In this document: piece after piece, positions 3,387 to 20,367 of the stretch
Layout of the letters: each line of letters opens with the position of its first letter
Position numbering within the stretch: position 1 is the stretch's first letter
Assembly: GCA_015060045.1 (NCBI GenBank)
Contig: SUZH01000006.1
Coordinates: 53,354 to 117,353, forward strand
Direction: 5' to 3'
DNA from: Rikenellaceae bacterium
GTDB taxonomy: Bacteria; Bacteroidota; Bacteroidia; Bacteroidales; Rikenellaceae
DNA: 64,000 nt
Translations under genes and position numbers: made by a program
Notes under the pieces: model-generated
Seen by the model: the letters and a program-made list of their open reading frames with translations, nothing else
Database searches by the model: none
Told to the model about the DNA's origin: nothing

Positions 3387-5693
3387 TTATTTCAGCAGGA
3401 ATACTACCGTCGAGAAGCCCGGCATCTTCACCGTCTGATCCACCAGCGTAATCTCACCGCCGAGGACGGCCACCGCCTTATTCACCGCATCGCTGATCTT
3501 CACCTCAATCTGCTGACCGGCCACGTTGTGCATCACGAGCAGTTTCTGGCCGTTGTACTCGCGGTAGAAGGCCGAAAGGGCTGCCGGGTAGTTCGACGTG
3601 TTGTAGCAGGGGGTCATCGAACCCAGCTCCGTCATCGCGGGATAGATATTGCGCAACTGGCCTAACGTGCGGTAGGTATTGAGGATCGAGTTCGGCTCAT
3701 TGGTCAAATCGGCCACCGTATTGAGCTTCTCAAACGAGGGAAGCAGTGCACCCGTATACTTCGGATACTCGGTCTTGCTCCAACGCATCGGCTGACGGAT
3801 GTAGACGTCACTCGACTCCTTCGAACCCGTGTAGCCCAGCTCCTCGCCGTAGTAAACTACGGGGCGGCCCGATACGGTCAGCAACAGAGCTCCCGCCATG
3901 CGCATGCGGTTGATGTTACCCCCCAGGTCCTCACCGGCACGATTCTCATCGTGGTTCGTGAGCTTCACCGCGTCGATATAGGTCGACTTCACATTCTTCA
4001 ACTGCGTCTGGATATTCTTCAGGCCCGAGGCGATCTCGCGGCCCTTACCCTCGTTCAGCCCCTTCGGCAGCACATTCCACCAAAAGTCGAAGTTGAAGCA
4101 CGAGAGGGGCGTATTGCGAGCAAAGCCCGACACGACACCCGTACCATCGAAGATCTCGGCCACCATGTAGAGATCCTGACCGTTATACTGCGGCTTGGTC
4201 TTGTAATAAGCGTTCAAATCCGAGTGGAACTTCGTCCAGAAGGTATAGTCGCGCGAATCGATTGACCAGATGCCATAGACATGCTTGGCGGCATCGAGGC
4301 GGAAACCATCCACACCCTTATCCAACCACCCCTTTGCCGAGGCGATGATGTGCTGATAAGGCTCGTTTGAAGCGAGGTTACCGATCACGCCATAGTTGAT
4401 CTCAGGCATCCAAACACCAAAGATCGGGGCGAAGATCTTGAGCGATTTCATCTCCTCGAACTGGATATCGGCCGCCGTCGTGTTGTTCAGCGCATAAGCT
4501 ACACCCGGCTGGATATAGGAGCCATTACCGCCATACTTCGTACCACCATCCCACGTCGTATTGGAGGTGCGTACCAGGAAGCCCCACGGCGAGTTGAAAT
4601 CACATACCAATTCATAGACACCGTTCTCCTTGGCATACATGCGGTGGGCGGCACCCGCCTCACCGTAGTAGAGGAACATATTGACGCTCGTATCCGTATT
4701 GTCGGGCTGGGCAGCCTCGGTCGTCTCGCTAACGGTCACCGTCGAGGGCTTGCCATTGACGGTCTGGAGCGTAAACTTATAGCGATGAGTTGTGGCCGCC
4801 GGTGCGGTCATACCGTCGGGCGTCTTCCAATCGTCCGAAGTGTAGGTCGAAACCATCGGGAACTTACCCGCAGCCACATCGGCAGCCGGATTGTACGAAA
4901 GGTTGTAATAATTCCACGTGGCACTCTGCTCACCATTCTTCAGGGCATCGGTGTACCATGGGTGACCCTTACCCGTGTGGTTTACGACATAGTCGAGGTA
5001 GATCTTAATATTCTTCTCATGAGCCGCCTTGACCAGATTCTCGAAATCGGCCATCGTACCAAACTGCGGATTTACGGCCGTGTAATCCGTCACGTCGTAA
5101 CCGTGGTACGAGTCGGCGGGATGGATCGGCGAGAGCCAGATGGCACCAGCACCGAGCGAAGCGATATAGTCCAACTTCTGCGTGATACCGTTGAAGTCAC
5201 CCACCTTATCACCGTTACTGTCGGCAAACGAATAGACCAAAATCTCGTAGATCATCTCACCACGCGTCTTGCCGTCCCAGGCGTCGGGCTGTGCCGTCAA
5301 CGTACCCTCCGCCACGGCTGCCGCAGCCTGCGTCACGGCGATCGACTTCGAATAGCCACCGGCTGCCGTCACGATCAACTCGGCGGTGCGCTCCTTCCCC
5401 GTATTGGGCGTTACCAGCACCTGCGTCGTCACTTTGCCTTTAGGACCACTCGTCTGCGCCAAGAAGCACCAATCGGTCTTCGTAACCGACCATGCAGCGG
5501 GAGCCTCAATCGTGATGGCCTGCTGACCACCCTCAGCCGTAAAGCTGAACGTAGCAGGAGATATCACCAGGTCCGTCTGCGGGGGCTGCGGAGGTTCGGG
5601 TTCATCTACCCCACCATCGCCACCACAGGCCGTCATCAGCATCAAAGCTGCCAAAAGCAGCGTACGCTGCAACAAATCGAAATATCGTTTCAT
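3387..5693 (-). CDS. susG: SusG-like surface alpha-amylase (GH13) lipoprotein with an N-terminal Ig/BACON-like domain and a ~200-aa insertion between GH13 regions I and II (the position of CBM58 in SusG)
   Basis: Start moved to ATG 5693 (MKRYFDLLQRTLLLAALMLMTAC lipobox). GH13 regions are DYVVNH, GFRLDAAKH, VAEIFD and LTNHDENR. The insertion contains WGFLVRTSNTTWDGGTKYGG, which resembles Sus-type starch-binding sites. Confidence 0.8.
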   Translation of the reverse strand: MKRYFDLLQRTLLLAALMLMTACGGDGGVDEPEPPQPPQTDLVISPATFSFTAEGGQQAITIEAPAAWSVTKTDWCFLAQTSGPKGKVTTQVLVTPNTGKERTAELIVTAAGGYSKSIAVTQAAAAVAEGTLTAQPDAWDGKTRGEMIYEILVYSFADSNGDKVGDFNGITQKLDYIASLGAGAIWLSPIHPADSYHGYDVTDYTAVNPQFGTMADFENLVKAAHEKNIKIYLDYVVNHTGKGHPWYTDALKNGEQSATWNYYNLSYNPAADVAAGKFPMVSTYTSDDWKTPDGMTAPAATTHRYKFTLQTVNGKPSTVTVSETTEAAQPDNTDTSVNMFLYYGEAGAAHRMYAKENGVYELVCDFNSPWGFLVRTSNTTWDGGTKYGGNGSYIQPGVAYALNNTTAADIQFEEMKSLKIFAPIFGVWMPEINYGVIGNLASNEPYQHIIASAKGWLDKGVDGFRLDAAKHVYGIWSIDSRDYTFWTKFHSDLNAYYKTKPQYNGQDLYMVAEIFDGTGVVSGFARNTPLSCFNFDFWWNVLPKGLNEGKGREIASGLKNIQTQLKNVKSTYIDAVKLTNHDENRAGEDLGGNINRMRMAGALLLTVSGRPVVYYGEELGYTGSKESSDVYIRQPMRWSKTEYPKYTGALLPSFEKLNTVADLTNEPNSILNTYRTLGQLRNIYPAMTELGSMTPCYNTSNYPAALSAFYREYNGQKLLVMHNVAGQQIEVKISDAVNKAVAVLGGEITLVDQTVKMPGFSTVVFLLK

Positions 5694-5803
5694 ATCGTTC
5701 TCTTTTTTTATCACTTGGTGACCGATGCGCCGATCAAAGCGCATCGGCCTAAACACAACCCGCAGCCTTCACCTTTCGGAAGGCTGTGGGTTGGAAAATC
5801 TGC

Positions 5804-8800
5804 TTACTGGGCAGGCGTCCACTTTACAACGAATACGTTGATAGCGCTGCCCTTGCTGTACATATTGATCACCGAACCGGCCTTTGCCGACGAGCAATCG
5901 ATCGTGTGTACCTTGCGCTCAGCCGTCTTATCGGGAGCCTCCAGGCCGTCACCCGTCACCTCCGTACCGTCGATAGCAACAGCCAGATAACGAGCTGCAT
6001 CACCGCTCGATTGGATATCTACCTCCAGCTTACCGGGACCCGTAACAGCCAGCTGCAGGGTACACTTCGAGGTATTACCCGAACCACCGAGCTGGATACG
6101 ATAAGCACCGCTGTTCGAACCGAACTTGCACTTCGAACCACCTGCGATAAACTTCAAGCCATTGCCCAGATCAACATCATCGGTGTAGTTGTCACCACCC
6201 AGCGTGTTGTAGAACTGCTCGAAGAGCGAGCTGCTCCACTCCAAGACACTCGGCGTCGGCGTTACGGGCTCCTCAGCCTGCTTTACCACCTTGATCTTAG
6301 CGGGTTGTGCAGGAATTACACCACCCTCGTCGGTCGTGGGATAGAAGTATACATGGTACTTACCATCGGCAGCCACCTTCATATTCTGGGCACCGCCACC
6401 TACCGTCAGGTCAGTCTCGACACCATCAGCCAGGACACCGGCCGTAGCCAGACCCCAGTTGAAGTTATCGTTCCACTCACCGGCCTTGCGTACCTTGAAC
6501 TCGTCAGCAGCCGTCAAAGCTACGTTCTCTGCCAGGAAGCTACCGTCAGCCTGCTTGGTCAGCATCACATCCGAGCTCCAATTGGTCATCGAACCAACCA
6601 GACCTACCTCGATCTGCTGGCCCAGCGGACCCGAAGGCGTCGAACCGCCTACCGACTCGATCTTGATCTTGGCAACACCGCCCTTCACAACGGCCGTACC
6701 ATCCAGCGTCGGGTAGAAATATACGTTGTACGTGCCGTCAGCAGCAACCGACATATTGGCCGAACCGCCACCGCACGTCAACTCAACCTCAACACCCAAC
6801 TCTACGATACCGGCAGCAGCCAGACCCCAGTTGAAGTTATCGTCCCAAGCACCGGCCTTACGTACCTTGAAGGTATCCGTAGCCTTGAGGGCAACATTCT
6901 CTACCTTGTAGCTGCCATCAGCCTGCTGTGCCAGCATTACGTCCGTATCCCAGTTGCCACCAACACCAATCAGACCTACCTCGATCTGCTCCGAGCTCGG
7001 AGCGGGAGGCGTTACAGGCTCACCAGCATCAGCGGGCGTCTTACCCGGCGTCATCACGTAGAGCTTCAGCTCGGCGGGATAGAAGTAGAGGTCATACGTG
7101 CCGGTCGTCTCTACCGACATATTCTGGCTACCGCCACCGTTTACGAGCGTCGTCAAGGCGTCGATCGTTACATTACCCGATACCTGACCACCGTAGTTCT
7201 CGGCATCGTTCCACTCGTTGTTGGCGCGAATCTTGAAGCCCTTGCCGGCCTCCAATGCCTGACCCAGCAGGACATACTCGCCGTTACCCTTCGCCGTGAA
7301 AGCGATATCGGGCGTGCCACCCCAACCGTTCAGATCACCTACCAGACCGTAGTTTACAGCGGGCTTCGGAAGCTCCGAACCGGCCGTCAGAGCCAGGAAC
7401 TCCTTCGTCTCGGCGTTGAAGTAGAAGTCATACGTACCGGCAGCAATCGACATATTCTTACCGTTGGCAACCAGCGTCGTAGCCTCACCTGCAGCCAGTG
7501 CATAGGGCTCCGTATCACCCGAACCACCGTAGTTCTCGTCCCAAGCGTTGGCAAAGCGAACCTTGAACTGATCCTCAGCCGTTACCGTTACGTTCTTGAC
7601 AGCCGTATATGCCGAACCCTCAACAGGCTCGAAAGCGAGGTCGGGCGTACCACCCCACGAGTTGATCGTACCAACCAGACCGTAGCTCGACGAGGGCAGC
7701 TCGGCACCGGCCGCAACTGCAATGAACTCCTTGGTCTTGGGATAGAAGTAGAAGTCGTACGAACCGGCAGCCATCGACATATTCTTACCACCGGCAACCA
7801 GCGTTACCTTCGTATCTACGGCCAGTGCATAGGGCTCAACATCACCCTCGCCACCGTAGTTCTCGGTCCAGTCGCTATCGACGCGGATCTTGATCTGATC
7901 CGACTCCGTCAGCGTTACATTCTTCACTACCTTGTAGTCCTTACCCTCAACGGCCTCGAAAACAAGGTCAGGCGTCTCGCCCCAGTTGTTGATCGTACCA
8001 ACCAGGCCGTAGTTCTTGGCCATCGGGTCCTCGATTACCACATCACCCGTCTTATGGAAGGTCAACGCGTAGTTGGCGCTCGTCGAGAGGTTCATCGTGA
8101 TATCGTATACACCCGGCTCCGACGGAATATCCGAGCCACCGAAGGTCATATCGTTCGGATCGCCACCCAGGTTGTAGGCATAGGGATCCTCCCACGGGTT
8201 GCCCCAGTTGTCGTTTACGCGTACCTTGTAAGCACCCTCGCCCAGCGTGATGCCCTTGAGCTCCATGGCACCGGTATCGGGGTTGTAGGTAAAGTTCGTC
8301 TGGCCATCCCAGCCCAGCTCCGTAGCCGAACCAATCAGACCGATCGACGAAACGGGAGCCATCGTCAGCTGTGCAGCAGCCAGGTCGAGGTAGAATACGA
8401 ACGTACCCTCCTTACCACCGGCACCGTCAGCTACCTGCATCATGTTGCCGGCCGAAGCGCTGATTGCGAAGGTATAAGGCTCACCCTCCGAGGTAGCCGT
8501 ACCACCCAACCAAACAACCGACTCATCCTTCGGGTTGGTGTAGATCACCTTGAAGCCCCACTCCTGACCATAGATCGAAACCACACCGTGGTAAACACCC
8601 GTGTTGGCATCACCCTTCAGGATCGGGAGCTCACCCGCCGTATTCCAAGCGTGGCCACCGAAGTCACCGCAAAGCTGTACAAACGCGGGATACGAAGGCG
8701 TGTAGGTCGTAACCTGAACCGTTACGGCAGGCGACTCGAGCTGGGGAGCACCCTCACCCTCGAGGTACGACGTCACGATGAGCTGTACATCACAAGCCGT

Positions 8801-9487
8801 ATCCTTCGGGCAACCCAGTGCGATCAGCGTCGAGTTGAGCGTCGTGGGCGAAATCGAGTACTTCGTCGTCGTCAAACCGCTGGCCAGCTCCTGACGAGCA
8901 CCATCGTTATAGACGATCTCCACCTTGTAGAGCGGATTCGTACCATACTCGAAGCGAGCCTCCGTCCAGCTGATCAGCGTAACGTCCTCGGTCATTCCCT
9001 CCGACAATACGATACCCTGAGCGGCAGCCTCATCCACAGCTACGATAGCAGGAACATAATCACCATAGACAAAAACGTTCATCGTGATCGGCTCCGACTT
9101 TACGACCGTCACACCATTGTCGGCCGCTACGTACATACCGATCGAGAAGTTGTTGTTGGCATCCAAGCCAAAACCGCTCAAGAGCTGCGTACGGAAAGCC
9201 TCCTTACCGGCCGTGAAATAGAGGCCGTTGGTCGACGTGAGCGAAATCTCTTGGCTGTCATACGTTGCATAGAGGGTGTACATCACCTCCTCACCCATAC
9301 CGCGAGCCGCCTTCCACGAGAAGGTCAGCGTCTCTTCGATCGAGTTCTCGGTCAAGAGGATGTCGGCGTGCGAATCCATGACCGGAGCCGTGGCCTCTAC
9401 CGCGTAGAGATCAGCGGGGTCCTTCTCACAAGCCGTGAAGGCCATGAGACCCGCTACCAGGGCAGTTAAATATCTGAAAACTTTCAT
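5804..9487 (-). CDS. Giant SusE/SusF-like surface glycan-binding lipoprotein: two SusE-N-like modules, seven tandem CBM-like modules and a distinct C-terminal domain
   Basis: ATG at 9487 with lipobox LMAFTAC. Modules of ~105-125 aa recur with NYGLVG..NWGG.PD...W..NYGG...YDFYFYP-type motifs. It sits between a SusE-like gene and a SusG-like gene. Confidence 0.8.
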   Translation of the reverse strand: MKVFRYLTALVAGLMAFTACEKDPADLYAVEATAPVMDSHADILLTENSIEETLTFSWKAARGMGEEVMYTLYATYDSQEISLTSTNGLYFTAGKEAFRTQLLSGFGLDANNNFSIGMYVAADNGVTVVKSEPITMNVFVYGDYVPAIVAVDEAAAQGIVLSEGMTEDVTLISWTEARFEYGTNPLYKVEIVYNDGARQELASGLTTTKYSISPTTLNSTLIALGCPKDTACDVQLIVTSYLEGEGAPQLESPAVTVQVTTYTPSYPAFVQLCGDFGGHAWNTAGELPILKGDANTGVYHGVVSIYGQEWGFKVIYTNPKDESVVWLGGTATSEGEPYTFAISASAGNMMQVADGAGGKEGTFVFYLDLAAAQLTMAPVSSIGLIGSATELGWDGQTNFTYNPDTGAMELKGITLGEGAYKVRVNDNWGNPWEDPYAYNLGGDPNDMTFGGSDIPSEPGVYDITMNLSTSANYALTFHKTGDVVIEDPMAKNYGLVGTINNWGETPDLVFEAVEGKDYKVVKNVTLTESDQIKIRVDSDWTENYGGEGDVEPYALAVDTKVTLVAGGKNMSMAAGSYDFYFYPKTKEFIAVAAGAELPSSSYGLVGTINSWGGTPDLAFEPVEGSAYTAVKNVTVTAEDQFKVRFANAWDENYGGSGDTEPYALAAGEATTLVANGKNMSIAAGTYDFYFNAETKEFLALTAGSELPKPAVNYGLVGDLNGWGGTPDIAFTAKGNGEYVLLGQALEAGKGFKIRANNEWNDAENYGGQVSGNVTIDALTTLVNGGGSQNMSVETTGTYDLYFYPAELKLYVMTPGKTPADAGEPVTPPAPSSEQIEVGLIGVGGNWDTDVMLAQQADGSYKVENVALKATDTFKVRKAGAWDDNFNWGLAAAGIVELGVEVELTCGGGSANMSVAADGTYNVYFYPTLDGTAVVKGGVAKIKIESVGGSTPSGPLGQQIEVGLVGSMTNWSSDVMLTKQADGSFLAENVALTAADEFKVRKAGEWNDNFNWGLATAGVLADGVETDLTVGGGAQNMKVAADGKYHVYFYPTTDEGGVIPAQPAKIKVVKQAEEPVTPTPSVLEWSSSLFEQFYNTLGGDNYTDDVDLGNGLKFIAGGSKCKFGSNSGAYRIQLGGSGNTSKCTLQLAVTGPGKLEVDIQSSGDAARYLAVAIDGTEVTGDGLEAPDKTAERKVHTIDCSSAKAGSVINMYSKGSAINVFVVKWTPAQ
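6248..8692 (-). repeat. Intragenic tandem array of seven CBM-like coding modules (aa ~266-1080 of the SusE/F-like protein); modules 3/4 and 6/7 are the most similar pairs
   Basis: Protein-level periodicity counted by hand. Module 3 (aa 492-601) resembles module 4 (602-711), and module 6 (835-957) resembles module 7 (958-1080). Confidence 0.75.
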
Positions 9488-9569: not shown

Positions 9570-10640
9570 TTACTCTGCCTGATAGCTTACAACCCACGGC
9601 GTGCAGTTGGCGTGGAGGTAAATGATACCGGCCGAAGGCGTCAGGATGTTACCTGCACCCTGTACCAGGTTGAAGCCGGCGGGATAGATCTCCGACGTCT
9701 CCGTACCACCACCGTAGTTGATGTCCCAGCTGTTGTTCAGACGGAACTTGAACTCCGTACCGGCGTCGATCGTCGACGTGGTCTTCCAAACATTGGCCGC
9801 AGCATCATAGGTCATCACCATCGGATCCGACCAGCCGTTGAACGAGCCCATAACATCTACCTGCGAGAACTGCTTGGCGTCGATAGCCATGTTGTTCAGG
9901 TCGATCGTGATCTTCCAGATACCGGCGGGCAGCATCAGGTTACCGTCGCTCGACGACGTGAAGTCGGCACCGAGGGTCGAGAAGTTACCGTAACCCATCT
10001 CACCACCGTCCCATGCACGGTTCGGCAGCACCTTGAAGCCCGAGTAACCCGGCGTATTGGCTGCATCCTCCGGAAGCTCAACCAGGGCCTCGTAGATGTT
10101 CGAGCCACCCTTGTTCTCCCAAATCTCAACGGCGTTACCGGCATCCCAGCCATTGAACACACCGCAGAGGTGATACTTACGCATAGCAGCCTTGAAGGTC
10201 TGCACCGAGAACGAAATCATGTTCGACTTCTGGGTCTTCAGATCCGAACCACCGGCGTAAGCAATTACATAAGCATTGATCACAGCCACCTCGTTGGCAG
10301 CCACACCCAGGTTGTTCACGATCTTACCATTGAGGTCCGATTTCTCCATCGTGATCGCGGGATAGTTCGACTCGGCGGCGAGGGTCTCCACGCCGTCCTT
10401 CTCAAAATAGAGCTGGTAGGTAATAGCCACCGACTGACCGAAATCGGCTGCCGAGCAAGTAAAGGTCACCGACTCAACGCTGATATTATCACCATTGACT
10501 ACGATGTCGCCCTGCTCGCTCAAAACCGGCGCTACGAAGTCCGACTCCTCAGCCAACTTTACATGCTCCACGTCCGTCTCGCACGAAGCGAACGTAAACG
10601 CAGCCATGGCGAGAGTCGCAAGATATTTCATATATTTCAT
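9570..10640 (-). CDS. susE: SusE-like outer-membrane starch-binding lipoprotein
   Basis: ATG at 10640 with lipobox FTFASC. It has a SusE-N-like module followed by two CBM-like modules (HLCGVFNGWD, VMGSFNGWSD, NNSWDINYGG) and lies directly downstream of susD. Confidence 0.75.
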   Translation of the reverse strand: MKYMKYLATLAMAAFTFASCETDVEHVKLAEESDFVAPVLSEQGDIVVNGDNISVESVTFTCSAADFGQSVAITYQLYFEKDGVETLAAESNYPAITMEKSDLNGKIVNNLGVAANEVAVINAYVIAYAGGSDLKTQKSNMISFSVQTFKAAMRKYHLCGVFNGWDAGNAVEIWENKGGSNIYEALVELPEDAANTPGYSGFKVLPNRAWDGGEMGYGNFSTLGADFTSSSDGNLMLPAGIWKITIDLNNMAIDAKQFSQVDVMGSFNGWSDPMVMTYDAAANVWKTTSTIDAGTEFKFRLNNSWDINYGGGTETSEIYPAGFNLVQGAGNILTPSAGIIYLHANCTPWVVSYQAE

Positions 10641-10682: not shown

Positions 10683-12365
10683 TTAATAACCCGGGTTCTG
10701 CTTCAGGTTCGGGTTGGCAATCAGGTCGGTCGTAATGATCGGGAATACCTTGAGGTGATCCGACAAAGCCACCGCACCATTTGCAATACCACCCTTATAG
10801 GGCCAGGGGAACGAAGCCGACGTGAAGTAACCGTAGCGGATCAAATCCACACGACGGTGACCCTCCCACATCAGCTCGCGTACGCGCTCCTTGAGGATGT
10901 AGTCCAAATCGATCGTCATCGGCATATCAGCTACACCGTTAGCACGCTCACGCAGCTGGGCGATGCGCTTGTAACCGGCGCTCGACGAGGTCAGCGAACC
11001 ACCGTTGAGGCGAGCCTCGGCCTCAGCCGAAATCAGGTACATCTCACCCAGACGGAAGATCGGGAAGTCGGCCGACGAGAACTCGATACCGCTCTCGATG
11101 CAGGCAGCCTTGTTATCCGAGGTCAGCGGAACCCACTTCAAGCAAGCCCAACCGGTGTTGATATCGGCCGACTCGGGGTCGATGTCCTTCGTGAAACCGG
11201 CGTTGGTGAATACGGCACGCTGATCCGAAGCAGCGCGGTCGTAACCCCACTGGTTCTTGTTGGCCCAATCAACACCCTGCAGCTCGAAGTTGTTCATTAC
11301 ATACTCATCCGAAACGTGGTAACCATTCCACTGGTTCATGTAGATGTCGCTCGAGAAGCCGAAGAGGCTCGACGAGATCAGACGCAGGTCGGCGTAAACC
11401 GATGCATAGAGCAGGTGCGTCGTACCACCGTAGCTGGGGGTCGTAGCACCATCGTAGAGCGCAGCCACGATGAACTCGTTCTGAGCACCGTTGGTCGAGT
11501 TGTCCTGACGGAAGAGGTTATCCCACTTCTTGCAGAGCTCAAAGCCACCGCTCGTGATAGCCAACTCGGCATACTTCTGAGCGTCAGCCCAGCGAGCCGT
11601 ACCCGTGTAAACCTCGGCGTTGAGGTACATACGAGCCAACACGGCATAAGCAGCACCCTTCGACAGACGCGGATAAACCACGCGCTGTGCGGGCAGGTTC
11701 TCATCCTCGATCAGCTCCAACAGCTCGTTCTCGATCCAGGCAAACATGCCGGCGCGGCCCAGCTGCTGGGGGAAGTTCGTCGTACCGATGTTCTCGGGCA
11801 AGCACAAAGGAGGATTGCCGTAGAGGTCCATCATGATCTCGTAATAGATCGCACGCAGCAGGCGCATCTCGGCACGGTAGGTGCGTACGTCATCGAGCTT
11901 AGCCTCGTGGCCACGGCCCTTCACGGCGCCATCACCCGAAACCGACTCATCGAGGAACTGGTTGCAGATAGCCACAGCCTTCAAACCACGCAGATAAACA
12001 GCCATCACAGCTGCATTCGTAGCCGTCCACTTGCCATACTGTACACCGTCGATGTAGTCATCGCCCCAGTTACACTTCAGGGCATCGGTCGTCAACTCGT
12101 TCAGAATCATGTACTGACGGATAAACTCACTCTGACCGGCATCCGATACGGCGATATCCGACGAACCCGGATCGCCCTGCGATACGAGCGAGAAGTAGCT
12201 GTACGCATAGTTCACGTACTGGTCGTAGCTCTCCGGTGCCTCGAAGGCCTTATCGGCCGTAATCGTCGACTCGGCCAGCGGCTCGGCATCCAGATCACCC
12301 AAGCAAGAGGTAATCATCGTAGCCGAGGTCAGAAGCGCTACACTATATAATAAGAACTTTTTCAT
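10683..12365 (-). CDS. susD: SusD/RagB-family nutrient-binding outer-membrane lipoprotein
   Basis: ATG at 12365 with lipobox MITSC. Its 560-aa length, TPR-like composition and position immediately after the SusC-type gene fit the family. Confidence 0.9.
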   Translation of the reverse strand: MKKFLLYSVALLTSATMITSCLGDLDAEPLAESTITADKAFEAPESYDQYVNYAYSYFSLVSQGDPGSSDIAVSDAGQSEFIRQYMILNELTTDALKCNWGDDYIDGVQYGKWTATNAAVMAVYLRGLKAVAICNQFLDESVSGDGAVKGRGHEAKLDDVRTYRAEMRLLRAIYYEIMMDLYGNPPLCLPENIGTTNFPQQLGRAGMFAWIENELLELIEDENLPAQRVVYPRLSKGAAYAVLARMYLNAEVYTGTARWADAQKYAELAITSGGFELCKKWDNLFRQDNSTNGAQNEFIVAALYDGATTPSYGGTTHLLYASVYADLRLISSSLFGFSSDIYMNQWNGYHVSDEYVMNNFELQGVDWANKNQWGYDRAASDQRAVFTNAGFTKDIDPESADINTGWACLKWVPLTSDNKAACIESGIEFSSADFPIFRLGEMYLISAEAEARLNGGSLTSSSAGYKRIAQLRERANGVADMPMTIDLDYILKERVRELMWEGHRRVDLIRYGYFTSASFPWPYKGGIANGAVALSDHLKVFPIITTDLIANPNLKQNPGY

Positions 12366-12385: not shown

Positions 12386-15300
12386 TTAGAAGTTAATGTT
12401 GAGGCGGACCGTATAGAGGCGCGGACGCGGGATGAGGGTGCTGTATACACCATCAGCGCTGTTCACCTCGGGATCCAGACCCGAGTAGTTGGTAATCGTA
12501 AATACGTTCTGGCACGAAGCAGCTACGCGGATGTTTACCTTCGAATTACCTACCTCGCGGAACGTGTAACCGAGGTTCACGTCGTCGAGACGGAAGAACG
12601 AAGCGTTCTCGATGAACATATCCGAGTAAGCCTGGTCGGTCGACGTGTTACCCGTGAAGCCCGTACGGAAGTTGTACTCGTTCAGGTTGCGCAGGTAGTT
12701 GTACGACAGCGTACCGCAGTAGGTAGACGAGTTGTCCACAGCCAGCTTGTTGATGGCGTAGTTGCCGATCGTACCGTGACCGTTGAAACCGAAGTCCCAA
12801 TTCTTGTAGTTGAGCTGCATCGAGATACCGTAGTAGAAGTCGGGCGTAGCCGAGCGACCGGTGATGTACTTGTCATCCTCGGTGATCTGGCCATCCTCGT
12901 TGCGATCGATGAAGGTGTTCATGATCGGCTTACCGGCGGCGTCATAAGCCTGCTGGTAGAGGTAGAAGGTGTAGGGAGCGAAGCCCTTGTAGTGTACCGA
13001 CGAGTTACCACCCGTACCCGAGAGCGACGAACCAACCTTCACGAAGTTGTCGTTCAGGTCACCAATCTCAGTCTGCTGCCACGTACCGTTGAGGTTGATC
13101 GTCCAGTTCCAATCCTCGGTCTGAACGGGAATCAGGTTCAACGATACCTCGACACCCTGGTTCACCATCTCACCGATGTTCGACATCAGGCGGTTCGTGA
13201 AGTTCGAGCCGGTCGGCACGTCAATCTCCGACAGCAGGTCGGTCGTGTGACGATAGTAGTAATCCACAGCACCGCTGATACGGCCCGACAGGAAGCCGAA
13301 GTCGATACCGGCGTTGTAGGTCGTCGTGGTCTCCCACTTGATGTTGCGGTTGAAGGCCTGAGGAGCCAGCGTACCGCCGATACCCGGCATATACTGGGCA
13401 TTACCGTTGTTTACATAGTTGTAGAGCGGATAGTAGGGATAGTAGTTGTCACCAATATCCTGCTGACCGGTCTGACCCCAACCCAGGCGGAGCTTCAGAG
13501 CCGACAGCGTCTTCGAATCCACGAGGAACTTCTCCTGAGCGATGTTCCAAGCAAAGGCAGCCGAGGGGAAGAAGCCCCAACGGTTATCCTCCGAGAAGCG
13601 CGACGTAGCATCCTCACGAACCGTGAAGGTGAACAGGTAGCGCGAATCAATCGAGTAGTTGATACGACCGAAGAACGAGATCAGGTAGTACTCCTTCGGA
13701 TAGGGCTTACGCGAAAGCTCCGTAGCACTCGACGAGTGGTACTCGTCACGATTGGCGTTGTAGTAGTTCAGCGACTGCGTCTTCACATAGTTGCGCTGCC
13801 ACGAGTAACCACCCATGACATCCAGACGGTGGATACCGAACTCCTTGTTATAGTTGGCGTAGAACTCCAACAGCGTGTTCGAGTTGAAGGTCGTCCAATC
13901 CGTGTAGGCATCCTCCGAACCGGCCTTCATGTTAGCAAACGAGCCCAGCTCGTTGTAGTGCGTACCGGTCGACTCGGCTACGTCGTAACCCAGGTTCAGG
14001 TTCAGGCGCAGATCCTCCAGACCGTGGATCTTATAGTCGAGCTGTGCGTTACCTACCGAACGCCACGTGGTCGAGTAGTTAACATAGTCGTTCAGGCTCG
14101 ACATCGGGTTCGTGTTGGCATTCTTCTCGGGGTTGAAGTTGCCGGCATCGTCGAAGTTACCCCAGTTGAAGTAACCGTTAGCCAGCGACTTGTTCACCGA
14201 ACCATCGGCGTTGTAGAAGTGAACCGGCTTGGTGGGGTCGTACGACAAAGCATCACCCACGGCATTGTTCGTCCAGTTCGACTTGTTGTAAACACCCTTC
14301 ACGTTCAGATTGACGGTCAGATGATCGTCGAAGAACTTGGGAGCAAGGTTTACGCTGGCATTCACGCGCGTGTTGTCACCACCCTTTACCGTACCCTGAT
14401 CGTAGTTGGCACCCAACGAAACGCGATAGGGGAAGTTACCCTTCTCCGTGTTACCGTAGAGCGAGAGGGCGTGGTCGGTCGAGAAGGCCGTGCGGTAGAT
14501 CAGATCCTGCCAATCGGTGTTGTAGTTCTTGCCGTTGTAACCCAGGAGCGACTGGATCTTCTCGGCATCGGCAGCGCTGTTAGCCTGATATACATTGGTC
14601 ATGTAATCGGCGAACTCCGAGCCCGTCAGCACGTCGATCTCGTCCGAGTTGGACTTCACGGTGTACGACGAGTTGTAGCTTACCTGCAGCTGCGAACCCT
14701 TACCCTTCTTGGTGGTGATGATGATCACACCGTTCGATGCACGCGAACCGTAGATAGCCGTAGCCGAAGCATCCTTCAGCACGGTGTAGGTGTCGATGTC
14801 ATCGGGGTTTACGGTAGCCAGCGGGTTACCCATACCGGCACCGCCGTCACCCGTCACGGGCACACCGTCGATCACGATGAGCGGGTTGTTCGAGGCGTTG
14901 AGCGAAGCGTTACCACGGATACGGATCTGTGCACCCGAACCCGGCTCACCCGAAGCGGGCGTAACGAGCAGACCCGGCACCTTACCCAGCAGCAGCTGAT
15001 CGGGCGAGGTTACCGCACCGCGGTTTACATCCTCGGCCTTGATCGCTACAACCGAACCGGTCATATCGCTCTTCTTCACGCCACCATAACCGATCACGAC
15101 GACTTCGTCGAGGGTCATCAGGTCCTCCTCCAGCGTCAGGTTCTTCAGCAACTCCGACGAGGCTGCCAGCTCTACGGTCTTATAACCGATGTAGCTGACC
15201 GAGACAACCGAATTGGCGTCTTTTACATTCAGTACGTACTGACCGTCGATGTCGGTCGTCGTACCATTCACGGTACCCACCTCGATGATCGTTGCTCCGA

Positions 15301-15427
15301 TCACGGGGATACCGGCGGCGTCCACCACGACGCCCTTCACCTCGTACTTACCTTGGGCAAGCGCGAGATGCGGGGTAACGATGCCCAGTAGCATCATACC
15401 CAAGCACATTGCGAGAAATTTTCTCAT
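12386..15427 (-). CDS. susC: SusC/RagA-family TonB-dependent outer-membrane transporter
   Basis: 1013 aa with a signal peptide and a carboxypeptidase-regulatory-like N-domain (VKGVVVDAAGIPVIGATI). It also has the TonB-box-like DEVVVIGYG, a plug and barrel, and a terminal aromatic residue (NINF). Confidence 0.92.
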   Translation of the reverse strand: MRKFLAMCLGMMLLGIVTPHLALAQGKYEVKGVVVDAAGIPVIGATIIEVGTVNGTTTDIDGQYVLNVKDANSVVSVSYIGYKTVELAASSELLKNLTLEEDLMTLDEVVVIGYGGVKKSDMTGSVVAIKAEDVNRGAVTSPDQLLLGKVPGLLVTPASGEPGSGAQIRIRGNASLNASNNPLIVIDGVPVTGDGGAGMGNPLATVNPDDIDTYTVLKDASATAIYGSRASNGVIIITTKKGKGSQLQVSYNSSYTVKSNSDEIDVLTGSEFADYMTNVYQANSAADAEKIQSLLGYNGKNYNTDWQDLIYRTAFSTDHALSLYGNTEKGNFPYRVSLGANYDQGTVKGGDNTRVNASVNLAPKFFDDHLTVNLNVKGVYNKSNWTNNAVGDALSYDPTKPVHFYNADGSVNKSLANGYFNWGNFDDAGNFNPEKNANTNPMSSLNDYVNYSTTWRSVGNAQLDYKIHGLEDLRLNLNLGYDVAESTGTHYNELGSFANMKAGSEDAYTDWTTFNSNTLLEFYANYNKEFGIHRLDVMGGYSWQRNYVKTQSLNYYNANRDEYHSSSATELSRKPYPKEYYLISFFGRINYSIDSRYLFTFTVREDATSRFSEDNRWGFFPSAAFAWNIAQEKFLVDSKTLSALKLRLGWGQTGQQDIGDNYYPYYPLYNYVNNGNAQYMPGIGGTLAPQAFNRNIKWETTTTYNAGIDFGFLSGRISGAVDYYYRHTTDLLSEIDVPTGSNFTNRLMSNIGEMVNQGVEVSLNLIPVQTEDWNWTINLNGTWQQTEIGDLNDNFVKVGSSLSGTGGNSSVHYKGFAPYTFYLYQQAYDAAGKPIMNTFIDRNEDGQITEDDKYITGRSATPDFYYGISMQLNYKNWDFGFNGHGTIGNYAINKLAVDNSSTYCGTLSYNYLRNLNEYNFRTGFTGNTSTDQAYSDMFIENASFFRLDDVNLGYTFREVGNSKVNIRVAASCQNVFTITNYSGLDPEVNSADGVYSTLIPRPRLYTVRLNINF

Positions 15428-15502: not shown

Positions 15503-16813
15503 CTATTCGACCTTTTTGGTCTGGATACCAAAGACAGCCACGGCGCCGATAAAGAGCGACACACCGGCCACGACAAGCATCATGATCTGCTCGCCACCCA
15601 CCAGCTTCAGCAGCAAACCGCCGAGCAATGCTGCGATAATCTGCGGCAGGCAGATCGTGCAGTTGAACAGCCCCAGATAAGCACCCATCGAGCTACCCGA
15701 AAGCGAGTTCGTGAGCAGCGCAAACGGCATGGCCAGCATGGCAGCCCAACCGCAACCGATCAGCAGGTACGATATAAATAATAAGTATTGGTCGTGGATC
15801 ATGGCCGTCGAGACGAAGCCCAAGCCGCCCAGCACGAGGCTCACGGCATAGCCCACCTTGACGTTCTTGAACATCGGCAGCACCATGGCCCACAGAATCG
15901 AGCCTACGGCCTGTACGGCAAACAGGACACCTACCCAGTCACCGGCAGCCTGATAGCCGGCCGAAGCGACATCGGTCGTACCCCAGATCGTCTCGGCGAT
16001 ACCACCGTTCGTGTAGGTCCACATATAAAGGAAGGCCACCCACGAAAAGAACTGCACCAGACCGATCTGCCAGAAGGCCTTCGGGGCGTGCAACAGCAGC
16101 TGCAGGAGGTTCTGCTTCTCCTCCTTGTTTGCCTGCTGCTCCTGGATGTTGTGGAAAGCGGCATACTCTTTGGGGTCCATCTCCTTGACCGTAGCACCCG
16201 TGTAGAGGACGCAGAGGATCAGGATGGCGGCACCGACATAGAACGAGTAGATTACCGAATCGGGAATCACACCCTCGGGAGCAACGTTCGAGATACCGAT
16301 CCAGGTGAAGATGTAGGGGAAGAGGTAGCCCACCAGCGAACCGGCGTTGCACAGCAGCGACTGGATCGAGTAGGCCTTTGCCTTCTGGCGCTCATTGACC
16401 AGATCGCCCACCATCATCTTGAAGGGCTGCATAGCCATATTGATCGACGTATCGAGCAACATGAGCATAATCAGGCCGAACGACATGGCCATCTTGACCG
16501 TCAGGCCGAGCGAACCGGCATTCGGAAGGAAGGCCATCACAGCGACAGCCACCAGCGCGCCCACATAGAGGTAGGGCTTGCGACGGCCCCAGCGACACCA
16601 GGTCTTATCGCTCCAGGTACCGACCAGCGGCTGCACGATCATACCCATCAGTGGGGGCAGGATCCAGAAAAAACTCAAATCATGGGGATCAGCGCCAAGC
16701 GTGGCGAAGATACGGCTGATGTTGGCACTCTGAAGTGCATAAGCGATCTGAACTCCGAAGAAACCGAAGCTCAGATTCCACATCTGCCAAAACGACAGGT
16801 CTCGTTTCTGCAT
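15503..16813 (-). CDS. MFS/GPH (SLC45-like) sugar:cation symporter, probable maltose/maltooligosaccharide inner-membrane importer; first gene of the PUL operon
   Basis: 436 aa with ~12 predicted TM segments and an RWGRRKPY motif after TM2, typical of the sucrose/maltose SLC45-GPH group. It is co-directional with susC across a 75-bp gap. Confidence 0.75.
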   Translation of the reverse strand: MQKRDLSFWQMWNLSFGFFGVQIAYALQSANISRIFATLGADPHDLSFFWILPPLMGMIVQPLVGTWSDKTWCRWGRRKPYLYVGALVAVAVMAFLPNAGSLGLTVKMAMSFGLIMLMLLDTSINMAMQPFKMMVGDLVNERQKAKAYSIQSLLCNAGSLVGYLFPYIFTWIGISNVAPEGVIPDSVIYSFYVGAAILILCVLYTGATVKEMDPKEYAAFHNIQEQQANKEEKQNLLQLLLHAPKAFWQIGLVQFFSWVAFLYMWTYTNGGIAETIWGTTDVASAGYQAAGDWVGVLFAVQAVGSILWAMVLPMFKNVKVGYAVSLVLGGLGFVSTAMIHDQYLLFISYLLIGCGWAAMLAMPFALLTNSLSGSSMGAYLGLFNCTICLPQIIAALLGGLLLKLVGGEQIMMLVVAGVSLFIGAVAVFGIQTKKVE

Positions 16814-16854
16814 ATTTTAGGTCTTTTTAGTTTAGTTTTTTTGGTTTGGTTAGA

Positions 16855-16862
16855 CAAATATA
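16855..16862 (-). promoter_or_regulatory. Bacteroidetes sigma-A -7 box (TATATTTG) for the MFS-Sus operon
   Basis: The reverse complement of caaatata matches TAnnTTTG, about 42 nt upstream of the MFS ATG at 16813. Confidence 0.6.
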
Positions 16863-16867
16863 TACGT

Positions 16868-16945
16868 GCGCGACGAAATGCACAATTCACCTCCGACGAA
16901 TGGTTACATGCAAGCGACGAACGGCCAATCGGGGCAGACGAAAGG
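16868..16945 (-). promoter_or_regulatory. Four same-orientation direct repeats, CATTTCGTC / CCATTCGTC / CCGTTCGTC / CCTTTCGTC on the operon strand, spaced 23/21/21 bp; candidate LytTR-type operator array
   Basis: The plus-strand hexamer GACGAA starts at 16872, 16895, 16916 and 16937. The array lies immediately upstream of the -7 box of the PUL promoter and next to the LytTR regulator operon. Confidence 0.55.
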
Positions 16946-16950
16946 AGGAG

Positions 16951-16968: not shown

Positions 16969-17041
16969 CACAAATCGAAAAAAAATTTGCAAAAACTACA
17001 AAAATAGTCTACCTTTATTGGTCGGAATCGATTTTTCGCCT

Positions 17042-18415
17042 ATGAGACAAAGCTCACTCTCCACGCCCTGCATCATCCACCTCTTCGCGTTGGCCCATGC
17101 CGCCATCGCGATCATGAGTCGCATGGTCAACTACGTGGACGATGTACCGTTGACGATTTTGACCCTGGCGCTGGTCGTGATCATCGCGCTTCGCCACCAC
17201 GTACAAGCCGAGATGATCGCCATCCTGGCACTGGTCGGCACCTTCGCCGGCTACCTCTTCGGTTCGTTCGGCGCCGAATTAATAGCTCACATAGTCCGCA
17301 ACGACATCTTTGCACCGGCCCTCACCACAGCCATCTTCACCGAGCTGCTCGGCTGGGGAGTTTACGCTTTTGCCCGTCTACGCGGCGAGCAGCAGGAGCG
17401 CTCTTTCACTTGGTCACCGCCCCTGCCGCAGATCGTCATCATCGTCCTCTCGATTCTCCTTTTCAGAATCTCCTACACGCTGATTTTCAACTCCTCGTAC
17501 TTCACGCAAACCTCTATCACGGCGGAGTTGAATCGCCTGCTTGAAAATACGGTAGCCATCCTGCTGATGTTGTGCGGTAACATGCTTTTTGTAAGCCTCC
17601 GTCTGCAACGCATCACCCGCCCCGAATGGCGCACGATCGGTACCGTGGTGATGACACTCCTCTTTACGACCGTCATCACGCTGCTCGTCTACTATGAGTT
17701 CCCGCACGGCCACGAAAAGCTCTTCGCCATGCTGCCCTTCCTGCGCCTTTACGCGGTGGTGCTCCTGTGCGACATTGTGGTCTATGCCCTCTTTAAGTTG
17801 GCTGCCTATGCGTTGATTTCCAAAGCCGAGTTGCATGCCGAGCGCGGCAAGAAGCATCAGGCGCAATTCCAGTACAACAAACTCAAGCTGCAGATCAACC
17901 CCCATTTCTTGTTCAACTCGCTCAACATCTTGGACTTCCTGGTGCAAGAACAGCAGACCGAACGCGCCTCGGCCTTCATCCACAAATTGGCCGACTGCTA
18001 TCGCTACATGCTCAAAAACGAGGACGAACAACTCGTAACGCTGCAAGAGGAGTTGATCTTCGCCCGCAAATACAGCGAGTTACTCCAGGAGCGTTTTGCC
18101 GAAGGTTTCCATGTGCGCTACAAAATCCCCGACGAGGTACTCATGCGCCACATCGTGCCCTGTGCCCTGCAACTCTTGATCGAAAATGCCACGAAACACA
18201 ACGCCGTCAGCATCGATTCGCCACTCGAAGTGGTGATCACGGTCGAGGAGGATCGTCTGCGCGTAAGCAACCGTCTGCAGCCCCGCCTGAGCAAGCAGCC
18301 CTCAACGGGTAAAGGGCTGAAAAACATCCGCCAACAATACCTCGACTTGGCAAACCAACCGATTCATGTCGAGCAAACCGATACCGAATTTATCGTAGAA
18401 CTTCCGCTATTATGA
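17042..18415 (+). CDS. LytS/YehU-family sensor histidine kinase (multi-TM input domain, no obvious periplasmic domain)
   Basis: Start set at ATG 17042; the upstream part of track ORF 15788..18415 is antisense to the MFS gene. The protein has ~6 TM segments, then the His_kinase block INPHFLFNSLNILDFLV and an HATPase region (LLIENATKHN). Confidence 0.85.
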   Translation: MRQSSLSTPCIIHLFALAHAAIAIMSRMVNYVDDVPLTILTLALVVIIALRHHVQAEMIAILALVGTFAGYLFGSFGAELIAHIVRNDIFAPALTTAIFTELLGWGVYAFARLRGEQQERSFTWSPPLPQIVIIVLSILLFRISYTLIFNSSYFTQTSITAELNRLLENTVAILLMLCGNMLFVSLRLQRITRPEWRTIGTVVMTLLFTTVITLLVYYEFPHGHEKLFAMLPFLRLYAVVLLCDIVVYALFKLAAYALISKAELHAERGKKHQAQFQYNKLKLQINPHFLFNSLNILDFLVQEQQTERASAFIHKLADCYRYMLKNEDEQLVTLQEELIFARKYSELLQERFAEGFHVRYKIPDEVLMRHIVPCALQLLIENATKHNAVSIDSPLEVVITVEEDRLRVSNRLQPRLSKQPSTGKGLKNIRQQYLDLANQPIHVEQTDTEFIVELPLL

Positions 18416-19209
18416 CACCTACATACAACGTACTGATTGTCGAGGATGAATTGCCGGCACAAGCCAACCTGCGCCGCGCCCTCGAAATGCGATTTCCGGA
18501 CCTGCGCATCGTCGGACTGCAAAGCTCGGTGCATGGCACCCTGGAGTGGCTGAAAGAGCCGACCAACCGCGCCGACATCATCTTCATGGATGTCGAGCTC
18601 TCGGATGGCATGTGTTTCGACATCTTCTCGCATGTTGAAGTGAATGCCAAAGTGGTTATTACCACTGCATTCGACAACTATGCCGTCAGGGCTTTCCGCA
18701 TCAACAGCATCGACTATCTATTGAAGCCGATTGACCCCGAGGAGCTGACCGGAGCCGTCGAACGATGCCGCCGATCGTTAGCAGCCGAAAAAGAGAATAC
18801 CAAAACTGCGCAACCGATTGATATTGAAGCGTTGAAGAGCGCACTAACGGGGGGGGGTGAGCCAACGTTCCGCAAACGTTTCGTGGTTCGTTTCGGCGAT
18901 CGTCTCTCGGTTATCGAGACGACGCAGGTCGCCTACTTCTACGCCGAGGACAAGAGTACCCACCTGGTCACGAACGAAGGGCGTCGCTACATCCTCGATC
19001 AATCGCTCGACCAGCTGGCCGATGAGATCTCGCCGGCCGATTTCTTCCGTATTTCGCGTAACTGTACCGTCTCGATTCGCGCCATTGCCGGCATCTCGAA
19101 ACATCCGTCGAATCGTCTGAAAGTCAATCTGATTCCAAAGCCCGATTTTGAGGTCTTCGTCTCGCGTTCGCGTACGACCGACTTCATAACCTGGCTTGAG
19201 GGCAAATAA
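18412..19209 (+). CDS. LytTR-family response regulator (REC + LytTR DNA-binding domain)
   Basis: The ATG overlaps the kinase stop (ATGA). REC motifs are LIVEDE and IIFMDVEL. The C-terminal LytTR block runs RFVVRFGDRLSVIETTQVAYFYAEDKSTHL...FFRISRNCTV. Confidence 0.88.
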   Translation: MTPTYNVLIVEDELPAQANLRRALEMRFPDLRIVGLQSSVHGTLEWLKEPTNRADIIFMDVELSDGMCFDIFSHVEVNAKVVITTAFDNYAVRAFRINSIDYLLKPIDPEELTGAVERCRRSLAAEKENTKTAQPIDIEALKSALTGGGEPTFRKRFVVRFGDRLSVIETTQVAYFYAEDKSTHLVTNEGRRYILDQSLDQLADEISPADFFRISRNCTVSIRAIAGISKHPSNRLKVNLIPKPDFEVFVSRSRTTDFITWLEGK

Positions 19210-19224
19210 ACAAAACGCCACTCC

Positions 19225-20367
19225 ATGAAACACTTATTGCTGACCCTTTGCGCCCTCTGCGCAACCCTTTCACTCGCAGCCCAGGAGGCGCTGCAGCCCA
19301 ACACGCTGCCCACCTCGCCCGAACAGCATGCCGACCGTTCGGTCACCTTCCGCTACACCGCTCCCGAGGCAAAGAGCGTCGTAGTTGTGGGCGATTTTGC
19401 CACTGAAAAACTCCCCATGACGCGCAACGCCGAAGGGATCTGGGAGGCAACGACCCAGCCCCTCGAGTCGGAGTTGTACAACTACGCATTTGAGGTGGAC
19501 GGCGTACGGGTCATCGACCCCTCGAATGTACACACCGTGCGTGACATTGCAACGACGAGTAACCTCTTCATTGTGAGCGGCGAACGGGGCGATCTATACA
19601 GTGTGCAGGATGTGCCGCACGGCACCATATCAAAGGTTTGGTACCCTTCACCCACGCTCGGCATGGAGCGTCGCATGACGATCTACACCCCGCCCGGTTA
19701 CGAGGAGGGCAAGGGGCGTTATCCGGTCTTTTACCTGCTGCACGGCATGGGAGGCGACGAGGAGGCGTGGCCGGCCTTGGGGCGTGCAGCCGAGATCCTC
19801 GACAACCTCATCGCACAGGGCAAGGCCGAGCAGATGATTGTCGTGATGACCAACGGCAACGCCATTCAGCAGGCCGCCCCGGGCCACTCCGCCGAGGGGC
19901 TCTACAAACCGCAATTCCAACTGCCAAAGACCATGGAGAGCTCGTTCGAGAAGTCGTTTGCGGATGTGTTGAAGTTCGTCGATAAACACTACCGCACCAT
20001 CGCCAAGCGCGAGAAACGCGCCATTGCCGGCCTCTCGATGGGCGGTTTCCATGCCCTGCATATTTCGCGCACGATGCCCAAAACATTCGACTATGTCGGC
20101 CTCTTCTCGGCCGCCACGATGAAGGGCAAAAACGAAACCTTCTACGCCGACATGGAGCAGACACTCAAAGCGCAGCGCGACAACGGATTCGAGCTCTACT
20201 GGATCGGCATTGGCAAGGAGGATTTCCTGTGGAAAATGAATGTCGAATTCCGCCAACAGCTCGATGCGATGGAGTTCCCCTACACGCTCCGCATCAGCGA
20301 GGGCGGCCACACCTGGCGCAACTGGAGAATCTACCTCTCGGAGTTTGCGCCGATGCTCTTCAAATAG
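19225..20367 (+). CDS. Secreted esterase (Esterase-D/CE1-like alpha/beta hydrolase) with an N-terminal CBM48/E-set-like domain
   Basis: It has a signal peptide and an N-domain VTFRYTAPEAKSVVVVGDF...GIWEAT...YNYAFEVDG. The catalytic part has YPVFYLLHGMGGDE and the nucleophile elbow GLSMGG. It starts 15 nt after the LytTR gene. Confidence 0.75.
   Translation: MKHLLLTLCALCATLSLAAQEALQPNTLPTSPEQHADRSVTFRYTAPEAKSVVVVGDFATEKLPMTRNAEGIWEATTQPLESELYNYAFEVDGVRVIDPSNVHTVRDIATTSNLFIVSGERGDLYSVQDVPHGTISKVWYPSPTLGMERRMTIYTPPGYEEGKGRYPVFYLLHGMGGDEEAWPALGRAAEILDNLIAQGKAEQMIVVMTNGNAIQQAAPGHSAEGLYKPQFQLPKTMESSFEKSFADVLKFVDKHYRTIAKREKRAIAGLSMGGFHALHISRTMPKTFDYVGLFSAATMKGKNETFYADMEQTLKAQRDNGFELYWIGIGKEDFLWKMNVEFRQQLDAMEFPYTLRISEGGHTWRNWRIYLSEFAPMLFK

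Follow-up and report, generated by a model that had tools for sequence, protein, structure and literature searches.

A three-site repeat array upstream of a starch-type polysaccharide utilization locus in Rikenellaceae: a putative operator of the adjacent LytS-like/LytTR two-component system

Which regulator switches on a starch-type polysaccharide utilization locus (PUL) in an Alistipes-like gut bacterium of the family Rikenellaceae? The question is raised by a stretch of 64,000 nucleotides of the contig SUZH01000006.1 of a Rikenellaceae bacterium (hereafter the window, 64 kb). In this stretch an alpha-glucan PUL, headed by a transporter gene of the major facilitator superfamily (MFS), is divergent from an operon that encodes a two-component system (TCS), formed by a LytS-like histidine kinase and a response regulator with a LytTR DNA-binding domain. 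The gap between the two operons carries direct repeats of a 9-mer. As judged from the comparison of sequences, it is quite likely that these repeats are a LytTR operator through which the ten-gene PUL would be switched on. To our knowledge, PUL regulation is known almost entirely from Bacteroides, where SusR, hybrid two-component systems and extracytoplasmic function (ECF) sigma factors are involved, and the regulation of glycan use is largely unstudied in Alistipes and other Rikenellaceae, which are abundant gut bacteria.

The repeat array and the promoter of the PUL

The array-bearing intergenic DNA is bordered by the ATG of the MFS gene at 16813 (minus strand) and the ATG of the kinase gene at 17042 and measures 228 bp in total (16814-17041), the array itself reaching to 16945. 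The hexamer GACGAA starts on the plus strand at 16872, 16895, 16916 and 16937, with spacings of 23, 21 and 21 bp. These positions and spacings, as well as the length of the gap, had been given in a preliminary description of this DNA and were all found again in the sequence. Read on the operon strand, the copies are the 9-mers that are listed here together with the promoter elements of the gap.

16937..16945, minus strand: distal operator site (putative), CCTTTCGTC; core kept in relatives; 21 bp from the middle site
16916..16924, minus strand: middle operator site (putative), CCGTTCGTC; core invariant in the intergenic alignments A2 and A3; identical to the AlgR core 9-mer
16895..16903, minus strand: proximal conserved operator site (putative), CCATTCGTC; CCATTCGTCGG invariant in A3; ends 32 nt before the -7 box
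16883..16886, minus strand: weak -33-like element of the PUL promoter, ATTG, separated from the -7 box by 20 nt
16872..16880, minus strand: extra site, CATTTCGTC, inside the -33/-7 spacer; spacing of 23 bp, out of phase, species-specific
16862->16855, minus strand: -7 box of the PUL promoter, TATATTTG (TAnnTTTG type); invariant in A2 and A3
16986..17017, plus strand: promoter of the kinase operon, TTTG at 16986-16989, a 20-nt spacer and TACCTTTA at 17010-17017; conserved in A2 and A3

GACGAA/TTCGTC is rare in the window, with 21 copies on one strand and 24 on the other, and the gap holds their sole cluster. Phased pairs of the form TTCGTC-N14-18-TTCGTC were observed three times against 0.07 expected from dinucleotide-preserving shuffles, none of 100 of which reached three. 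The exact 21/21 triple was observed once against 0.01 expected, even with two mismatches allowed. Only the 9-mers repeat and the spacers between them are unrelated, since Tandem Repeats Finder reports no 21-bp tandem array. An Rfam scan of the 228 bp gave nothing near the gathering score and no known RNA element.

The preliminary description counted four phased sites. Three of them, spaced at 21/21 bp, are conserved and stand, whereas the fourth is set off by 23 bp and is species-specific: the site at 16872-16880 is identical in the same-species contigs L205-L207, and its equivalents in the nearest relatives L204, L001 and L002 (kinase identity of 83%, 81% and 75%) read TTTAGG, TTTGGG and TTTAGC. 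On this comparison, the copy at 16872-16880 was either added in this species or arose by coincidence, and the putative conserved operator has three sites.

Bacteroidota promoters are composed of a -33 box TTTG and a -7 box TAnnTTTG. On the operon strand the elements of the PUL promoter follow each other as CCATTCGTC, 8 nt, ATTG, 20 nt and TATATTTG. The -7 box at 16855..16862 is the one already proposed in the preliminary description, which also placed the proximal site at the -33 region; this holds for the site at 16895, just upstream of -33, but not for the site at 16872, which falls within the -33/-7 spacer. Between the end of the proximal conserved site and the -7 box there are 32±1 nt in 18/18 loci where both could be placed, and the orthologous PUL promoters are mostly devoid of TTTG at -33. 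The promoter has the look of an activator-dependent one, because its upstream sites stand at a fixed distance, its -7 box is good and the -33 box is mostly absent. The centres of the sites would be placed near -50, -71 and -92, with a transcription start predicted at about 16847-16850.

Conservation of the array and its neighbours in relatives

A scan of 185,579 species genomes with the kinase alignment yielded 80 loci. In 28 of them (L001-L028), which originate from Alistipes, Rikenellaceae, Candidatus Cryptobacteroides and other Bacteroidales, the match spans the N-terminal sensor domain, with 35-81% identity. Each relative entered the comparison with about 17 kb of sequence, and the present genome with the 64 kb of the window. 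Among cultured carriers, Alistipes muris has an ortholog. The kinase-regulator pair has MFS and SusC genes beside it in 28/28 loci, and SusD as well in 24 within the fetched stretch; 25 of the 28 keep the divergent arrangement of the window. Among the 52 loci that match in the kinase core only, which are generic LytS/LytTR loci, none has an MFS, SusC or SusD neighbour. The PULs of the distant groups are also alpha-glucan loci, containing SusE/SusF and a maltose phosphorylase of glycoside hydrolase (GH) family 65.

The regions upstream of the MFS gene in the relatives carry two or three copies of GA[C/T]GAA at 21-bp spacing. By a strict criterion, phased repeats are present in 22/29 of these regions and degenerate in-phase sites in the remainder. 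Co-occurrence of array and TCS in related genomes had been proposed as a check, and nearly all orthologous loci that keep the TCS do have phased repeats upstream of the MFS gene. The frequency of the motif pair, the other check proposed, gives the same picture: of the 31 phased TTCRTC pairs in L001-L028 (869 kb, both strands), 28 fall inside the 7.3 kb upstream of the MFS genes, on the operon strand, against 7 pairs per 1.47 Mb in the 52 unrelated LytTR loci, an enrichment of about 800-fold at the MFS promoters. When 63 phased sites are aligned, the motif extends to the 9-mer C[C/A]RTTC[G/A]TC with 12-nt spacers, and the C at -3, a position outside the selection criterion, is found in 50/63 sites. 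In the alignments A2 and A3 the three cores, the -7 box of the MFS gene and the -33 and -7 boxes of the kinase gene are invariant islands in diverged DNA. Compared by eye with the regulator sequence, the site variants differ much within one locus.

The TCS adjoins the array in 30/30 loci when two further ones are counted: L135, a human-gut metagenome locus found by the motif alone, and L209, with an identity of only 26% in the sensor domain. A search with the MFS protein gave matches in Alistipes or Rikenellaceae only, none of them less than 82% identical, with no TCS-free loci among them. A metagenome scan for TTCGTC-N15-TTCGTC-N15-TTCGTC returned at least 120 unranked stretches, mostly from soil and seawater, and L135 alone represents this system among the matches listed; the scan is uninformative on specificity and adds one divergent example. 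The sites exist, are phased and conserved, keep a fixed promoter geometry and co-occur exclusively with the TCS.

The rearranged loci indicate which of the two genes the repeats serve. In L005 the kinase, regulator and MFS genes are co-directional and three TTCGTC repeats are placed between the regulator stop and the MFS start, on the MFS strand; the region upstream of the kinase has no repeats and keeps its TTTG/TAnnTTTA promoter. In L006 an insertion parts the genes and the repeats remain with the MFS gene, and in L021 they are found upstream of the relocated MFS gene. The kinase promoters of the relatives retain TTTG, about 20 nt and TAnnTTTA, and are repeat-free in L005 and L006. As these rearrangements show, the cis-element formed by the repeats belongs to the promoter of the PUL and not to that of the TCS.

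Several other features of the gap and of its orthologs were observed. A perfect 20-bp palindrome at 16950-16969, formed by GCCAAAAAGC and GCTTTTTGGC, lies between the distal repeat and the -33 box of the kinase promoter. It was considered as a second operator and rejected: the same-species contigs keep it, but even L204, L001 and L002, the closest relatives, do not. The 5' leader that follows the -7 box (16814-16854, minus strand) contains an A/C-rich stretch, TAACCAAACC..., which reads ACCGAAACCGAAAACTAC in L005 and L006. The stretch is conserved in L001, L002 and L004-L006, also in loci whose MFS proteins share just 40% identity, and could have a role in translation or be a small RNA-related element. 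An Alistipes clade (L008-L012, L016, L021 and L023) has an array composed of GCAATTCGTC plus CCATTCGG/CCGTTCAG, with a palindrome-like ACCCTTTGGGTA at the third in-phase position, which could be a diverged site or the site of a second factor. Finally, two paralogous versions of the system seem to be present in Alistipes genomes (L003-L006 versus L007-L023). In one version the kinases are 55-59% identical to that of the window and the MFS only about 40%; in the other the kinases are 40-46% identical and the MFS 73-79%. The locus of the window has a kinase of the first type and an MFS of the second.

The kinase-regulator pair, the PUL and known systems

The two proteins of the TCS are encoded as follows.

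17042..18415, plus strand: histidine kinase with a PF06580 core and a sensor of about eight transmembrane helices (Pfam, hydropathy and AlphaFold2 model); H288 and N-box invariant
18412..19209, plus strand: response regulator with a LytTR DNA-binding domain (Pfam Response_reg and LytTR, the latter with 60.6 bits against a cutoff of 22.6)

The regulator has the composition of the LytTR family, an N-terminal receiver with a phospho-acceptor aspartate and a C-terminal LytTR domain (PF04397). Its receiver is intact, with the DE pair, D60 and K105 (Pfam Response_reg, 47 bits). The best NCBIfam models are BtsR, with 82.4 bits against a cutoff of 246, and LytR, with 80.8 against 375, so that the regulator is not assigned to either equivalog. 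The kinase contains a LytS-type core (PF06580, E = 4.8e-22) with a weak HATPase_c match (E = 0.085), as is typical of the class, and its H-box (H288) and N-box are invariant. Its N-terminal 260 residues form about eight helices with short loops and no periplasmic domain, according to hydropathy and to an AlphaFold2 model of mediocre quality (pLDDT 70.7, pTM 0.35) that served for the helix count only. Many polar and aromatic residues of these helices are invariant, among them H13, H19, D33, D34, R51, E57, E101, W105, R142 and N169. The sensor gave no 5TMR-LYT (PF07694) or GAF match at E <= 10, and no Pfam or NCBIfam model fits it; the kinase is LytS-like in its core only, since the combination of 5TMR-LYT and GAF is not found. 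The sensor domain (17042-17836, plus strand) belongs to a very small family, of which an exhaustive HMMER search of 1.84 billion representatives found only 176 clusters at the 50% identity level. The full-length members have 450-490 residues and one architecture, which suggests a dedicated function, and the remainder are shorter fragments.

The operators of LytTR regulators are direct (or inverted) repeats of 9-11 nt with spacers of 11-13 nt, located upstream of the target promoter (PMC4847170). The array has this form, with 9-mers, 12-nt spacers and 21/21-bp phasing conserved in orthologous loci, and the LytTR-like geometry that had been proposed for it falls inside the published range. The AlgR core given for comparison in the preliminary description is also correct: AlgR, the LytTR regulator of the AlgZ/FimS-AlgR system of Pseudomonas aeruginosa, recognizes the core CCGTTCGTC, which is identical to the middle site, and this site conforms to the AlgR-type core CCGT(T/G)(C/G)GTC (PMC4064291). 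The AlgR variants CCGTTTGTC and CCGTGCGTC are close to the consensus found here, and the algD and algC promoters have three sites each, like this array (PMC4064291). On the other hand, the sites of AlgR are scattered across hundreds of bp in both orientations, whereas the array is tight and phased at 21 bp. The comparison with AlgR is one of site sequence, not of protein orthology, and the shared 9-mer may be convergent because the specificity of LytTR domains lies in variable loops.

A second likeness is to YpdA/YpdB and BtsS/BtsR of Escherichia coli, whose kinases, multi-pass membrane proteins with a PF06580 core, are likewise coupled to a receiver-LytTR regulator. YpdB and BtsR bind direct repeats that immediately precede a transporter gene's promoter, and YpdAB induces the MFS gene yhjX, as the preliminary description stated (PMC4847170). 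The present system differs in its regulator, with 82 bits against the equivalog cutoff of 246, in its kinase, which is without 5TMR-LYT or GAF, and in having three sites instead of two. Its target is a ten-gene Bacteroidota PUL with a -33/-7 promoter, and its signal is presumably a glycan derivative and not pyruvate.

The genes of the PUL and the gene downstream of the regulator are listed below.

15503..16813, minus strand: SLC45-type MFS sugar transporter, first gene of the PUL operon (Pfam MFS_1/MFS_2)
12386..15427, minus strand: SusC-like TonB-dependent transporter (Pfam CarboxypepD_reg, Plug, TonB beta-barrel)
10683..12365, minus strand: SusD-like protein (Pfam SusD_RagB)
9570..10640, minus strand: SusE-like surface glycan-binding protein (Pfam SusE)
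5804..9487, minus strand: SusE/F-like protein of 1227 aa (Pfam SusE, two stretches)
3387..5756, minus strand: SusG-like GH13 alpha-amylase with CBM58 (Pfam Alpha-amylase, SusG_CBM58, SusG_C, BACON)
2059..3375, minus strand: GH53-family glycoside hydrolase (Pfam Glyco_hydro_53, E = 7e-51)
1..2024, minus strand: GH13 gene crossing the window start (Pfam Alpha-amylase)
19225..20367, plus strand: CBM48-esterase, 16 bp after the regulator gene (Pfam; L001, L002 and L204 only)

The locus is a Sus-like PUL, with an adjacent susC/susD pair and carbohydrate-active enzymes for one glycan. Pfam bears out every gene named in the preliminary description, which gave an operon of eight genes; the operon has ten (MFS, susC, susD, susE, susF-like, susG, GH53 and three GH13), since two further GH13 genes, one of them cyclomaltodextrinase-like, are placed beyond the window start in the same-species contigs L201-L203. 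In these contigs the last GH13 gene is followed by unrelated GT2, AsmA and M16 peptidase genes. The source names of the MFS protein are 'SLC45 family MFS transporter' and 'maltose/maltooligosaccharide transporter'. The CBM48-esterase gene is probably co-transcribed with the TCS. The SusE/F-like protein is unusually large, and besides its two SusE stretches it has a weak pullulanase X25-like match; it may be an extended starch-binding lipoprotein with multiple carbohydrate-binding modules. The GH53 gene, of the beta-1,4-galactanase family, is located between susG and the three GH13 genes, amid an otherwise purely alpha-glucan PUL.

None of the described classes of PUL regulator (SusR, hybrid two-component systems, ECF sigma/anti-sigma pairs, LacI, GntR, AraC, CRP and SARP-OmpR) was detected within the PUL or at either end of it. 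The absence of such a regulator had been claimed before and holds both by Pfam and at the far end of the PUL in the same-species contigs. In the Sus locus of Bacteroides thetaiotaomicron, which is likewise an alpha-glucan PUL with susC, susD, susE/F, a susG-type GH13 with CBM58 and a regulator encoded beside the locus, SusR is a one-component protein of the inner membrane with a periplasmic sensor; here a kinase and a LytTR regulator are found instead, and the locus is led by an SLC45 MFS gene and is without SusR. The chitin locus of Flavobacterium johnsoniae also combines a classical, non-hybrid TCS (CusS/CusR) with a Bacteroidota PUL beside an MFS gene, and by genetic evidence growth on chitin and the production of ChiA depend on CusS/CusR (PMC5127042). 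That locus serves the use of chitin, and periplasmic sensing is presumed for its kinase; the source states no DNA-binding family for CusR and defines no operator (PMC5127042).

The families of PUL regulators given in PMC7641319 are hybrid two-component systems, ECF sigma/anti-sigma, LacI, CRP, AraC, SARP-OmpR and GntR; SusR is named separately as the first PUL regulator identified, and LytTR is not mentioned there. In the searchable full-text literature LytTR occurs in this context only in Pfam counts, in gene lists or in a Gram-positive Roseburia locus, and no description of a LytTR-regulated Sus-like PUL was found there. The suggestion of a new regulatory architecture for PULs holds in this respect, but not for the use of a classical TCS as such, for which CusS/CusR is a precedent (PMC5127042).

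Readings of the array and their meaning

The repeats are very probably a functional operator of the PUL promoter, as their conservation and geometry suggest. That the adjacent LytTR regulator would bind them and activate the PUL is probable. The link between regulator and repeats is supported by the adjacency of the TCS in all 30 loci, the LytTR geometry, the AlgR-like site, the intact domains and the lack of an alternative regulator nearby. In the proposed mechanism, the kinase (17042-18415) would detect an alpha-glucan-derived signal and then phosphorylate the regulator (18412-19209), whose operator would be the three 9-mers at 16895-16903, 16916-16924 and 16937-16945. The regulator molecules would bind cooperatively on one helix face, at the positions near -50, -71 and -92, and recruit RNA polymerase to a promoter with a good -7 box and a poor or absent -33 box. 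This recruitment would switch on the ten-gene operon from MFS through GH13. The TCS operon would be driven by its own consensus promoter, with no autoregulation through the repeats. The signal may be a maltooligosaccharide inside the membrane domain of the kinase, or transport through the co-regulated SLC45 MFS. Sensing in the membrane domain is proposed because BtsS binds its ligand pyruvate inside a seven-helix membrane domain (PMC10653868); by this analogy, ligand binding in the membrane domain or coupling to the MFS is speculation. Physical binding, the sign of the regulation and the identity of the signal are what we infer from these comparisons.

Several points weigh against this model. 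The comparison loci were recovered via the kinase and are therefore sampled from carriers of the TCS, L135 alone having been found by the motif. The promoter positions are derived from consensus boxes. Three equally spaced sites are found instead of the usual LytTR pair, and the Alistipes clade described above has degenerate second and third sites (CCATTCGG, CAnTTTGG). The regulator scores far under the BtsR and LytR equivalog cutoffs. In a phmmer search against the PDB it matched receiver domains only, and no LytTR-DNA complex, its LytTR domain being too diverged for the AgrA-type structures. To sense periplasmic oligosaccharides is unusual for a kinase without a periplasmic domain, and for this reason the signal could be other than a glycan.

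One alternative accepts the repeats as real and has them bound by another factor encoded elsewhere, such as a SusR-like or other maltose regulator, the TCS controlling something else or fine-tuning. The view is indeed limited to 64 kb in the present genome and to about 17 kb in each relative, all with the TCS. We nevertheless consider this reading unlikely: the TCS stands beside the array across deep divergence and is still linked to it after rearrangements, the length, spacing and direct-repeat form of the sites are those of the LytTR operator type, the PUL and its flanks encode no other regulator, and the small sensor family with its single full-length architecture suggests a dedicated function.

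With the adjacent regulator retained as the binding protein, the sign of its action may be questioned. It could repress the PUL or act both ways, as AlgR both activates and represses (PMC4064291), and the species-specific site at 16872-16880, which overlaps the core promoter, would then block RNA polymerase here. This is quite improbable, since that spacer site is missing in every other genome examined outside this species, while the conserved sites have the signature of an activator, being located upstream of -33 at a fixed 32 nt from the -7 box of promoters in which the -33 box is mostly absent; the known LytS/LytTR nutrient systems, moreover, activate their transporter genes. Finally, that the repeats arose by chance or are a non-regulatory relic such as a decayed tandem duplication, a reading favoured by the shortness of the 6-mer cores and by the triple pattern in unrelated soil and seawater DNA (among the unranked metagenome matches listed), is effectively refuted by the comparative data, namely the shuffles, the enrichment at the MFS promoters of relatives, the invariance of the cores in diverged spacers, the lack of a tandem array and the conservation of phase and of the distance to the -7 box.

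The reading of the array as a LytTR operator is thus retained. The comparisons support a LytS-like/LytTR system whose sensor domain is new and whose putative operator has three sites; Rikenellaceae and related Bacteroidales would have recruited it for the dedicated control of their starch-type PULs. A bolder version, which we put forward tentatively and lean slightly against, would make it a distinct new class of PUL regulator. In this version a lineage-restricted kinase of about eight membrane helices and no periplasmic domain would sense maltooligosaccharide within the membrane or SLC45 flux, and a LytTR trimer or short filament on three in-phase sites would replace the missing -33 box; throughout Rikenellaceae and their relatives among gut Bacteroidales, the system would take the place of SusR as the master regulator of starch use.

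A putative operator that is well delimited, a promoter geometry that stays constant and a kinase-regulator pair dedicated to the locus together make up a directly testable model of how starch use would be switched on. The motif is usable for the prediction of regulons in metagenomes, and the promoter and regulator could serve as a compact inducible module for genetic tools in non-Bacteroides Bacteroidales. The membrane-embedded sensor domain is a new one whose ligand is to be sought. In this model, the pattern known from YpdAB and BtsSR, in which a LytS/LytTR nutrient sensor is connected to a transporter, would be extended to whole PULs.

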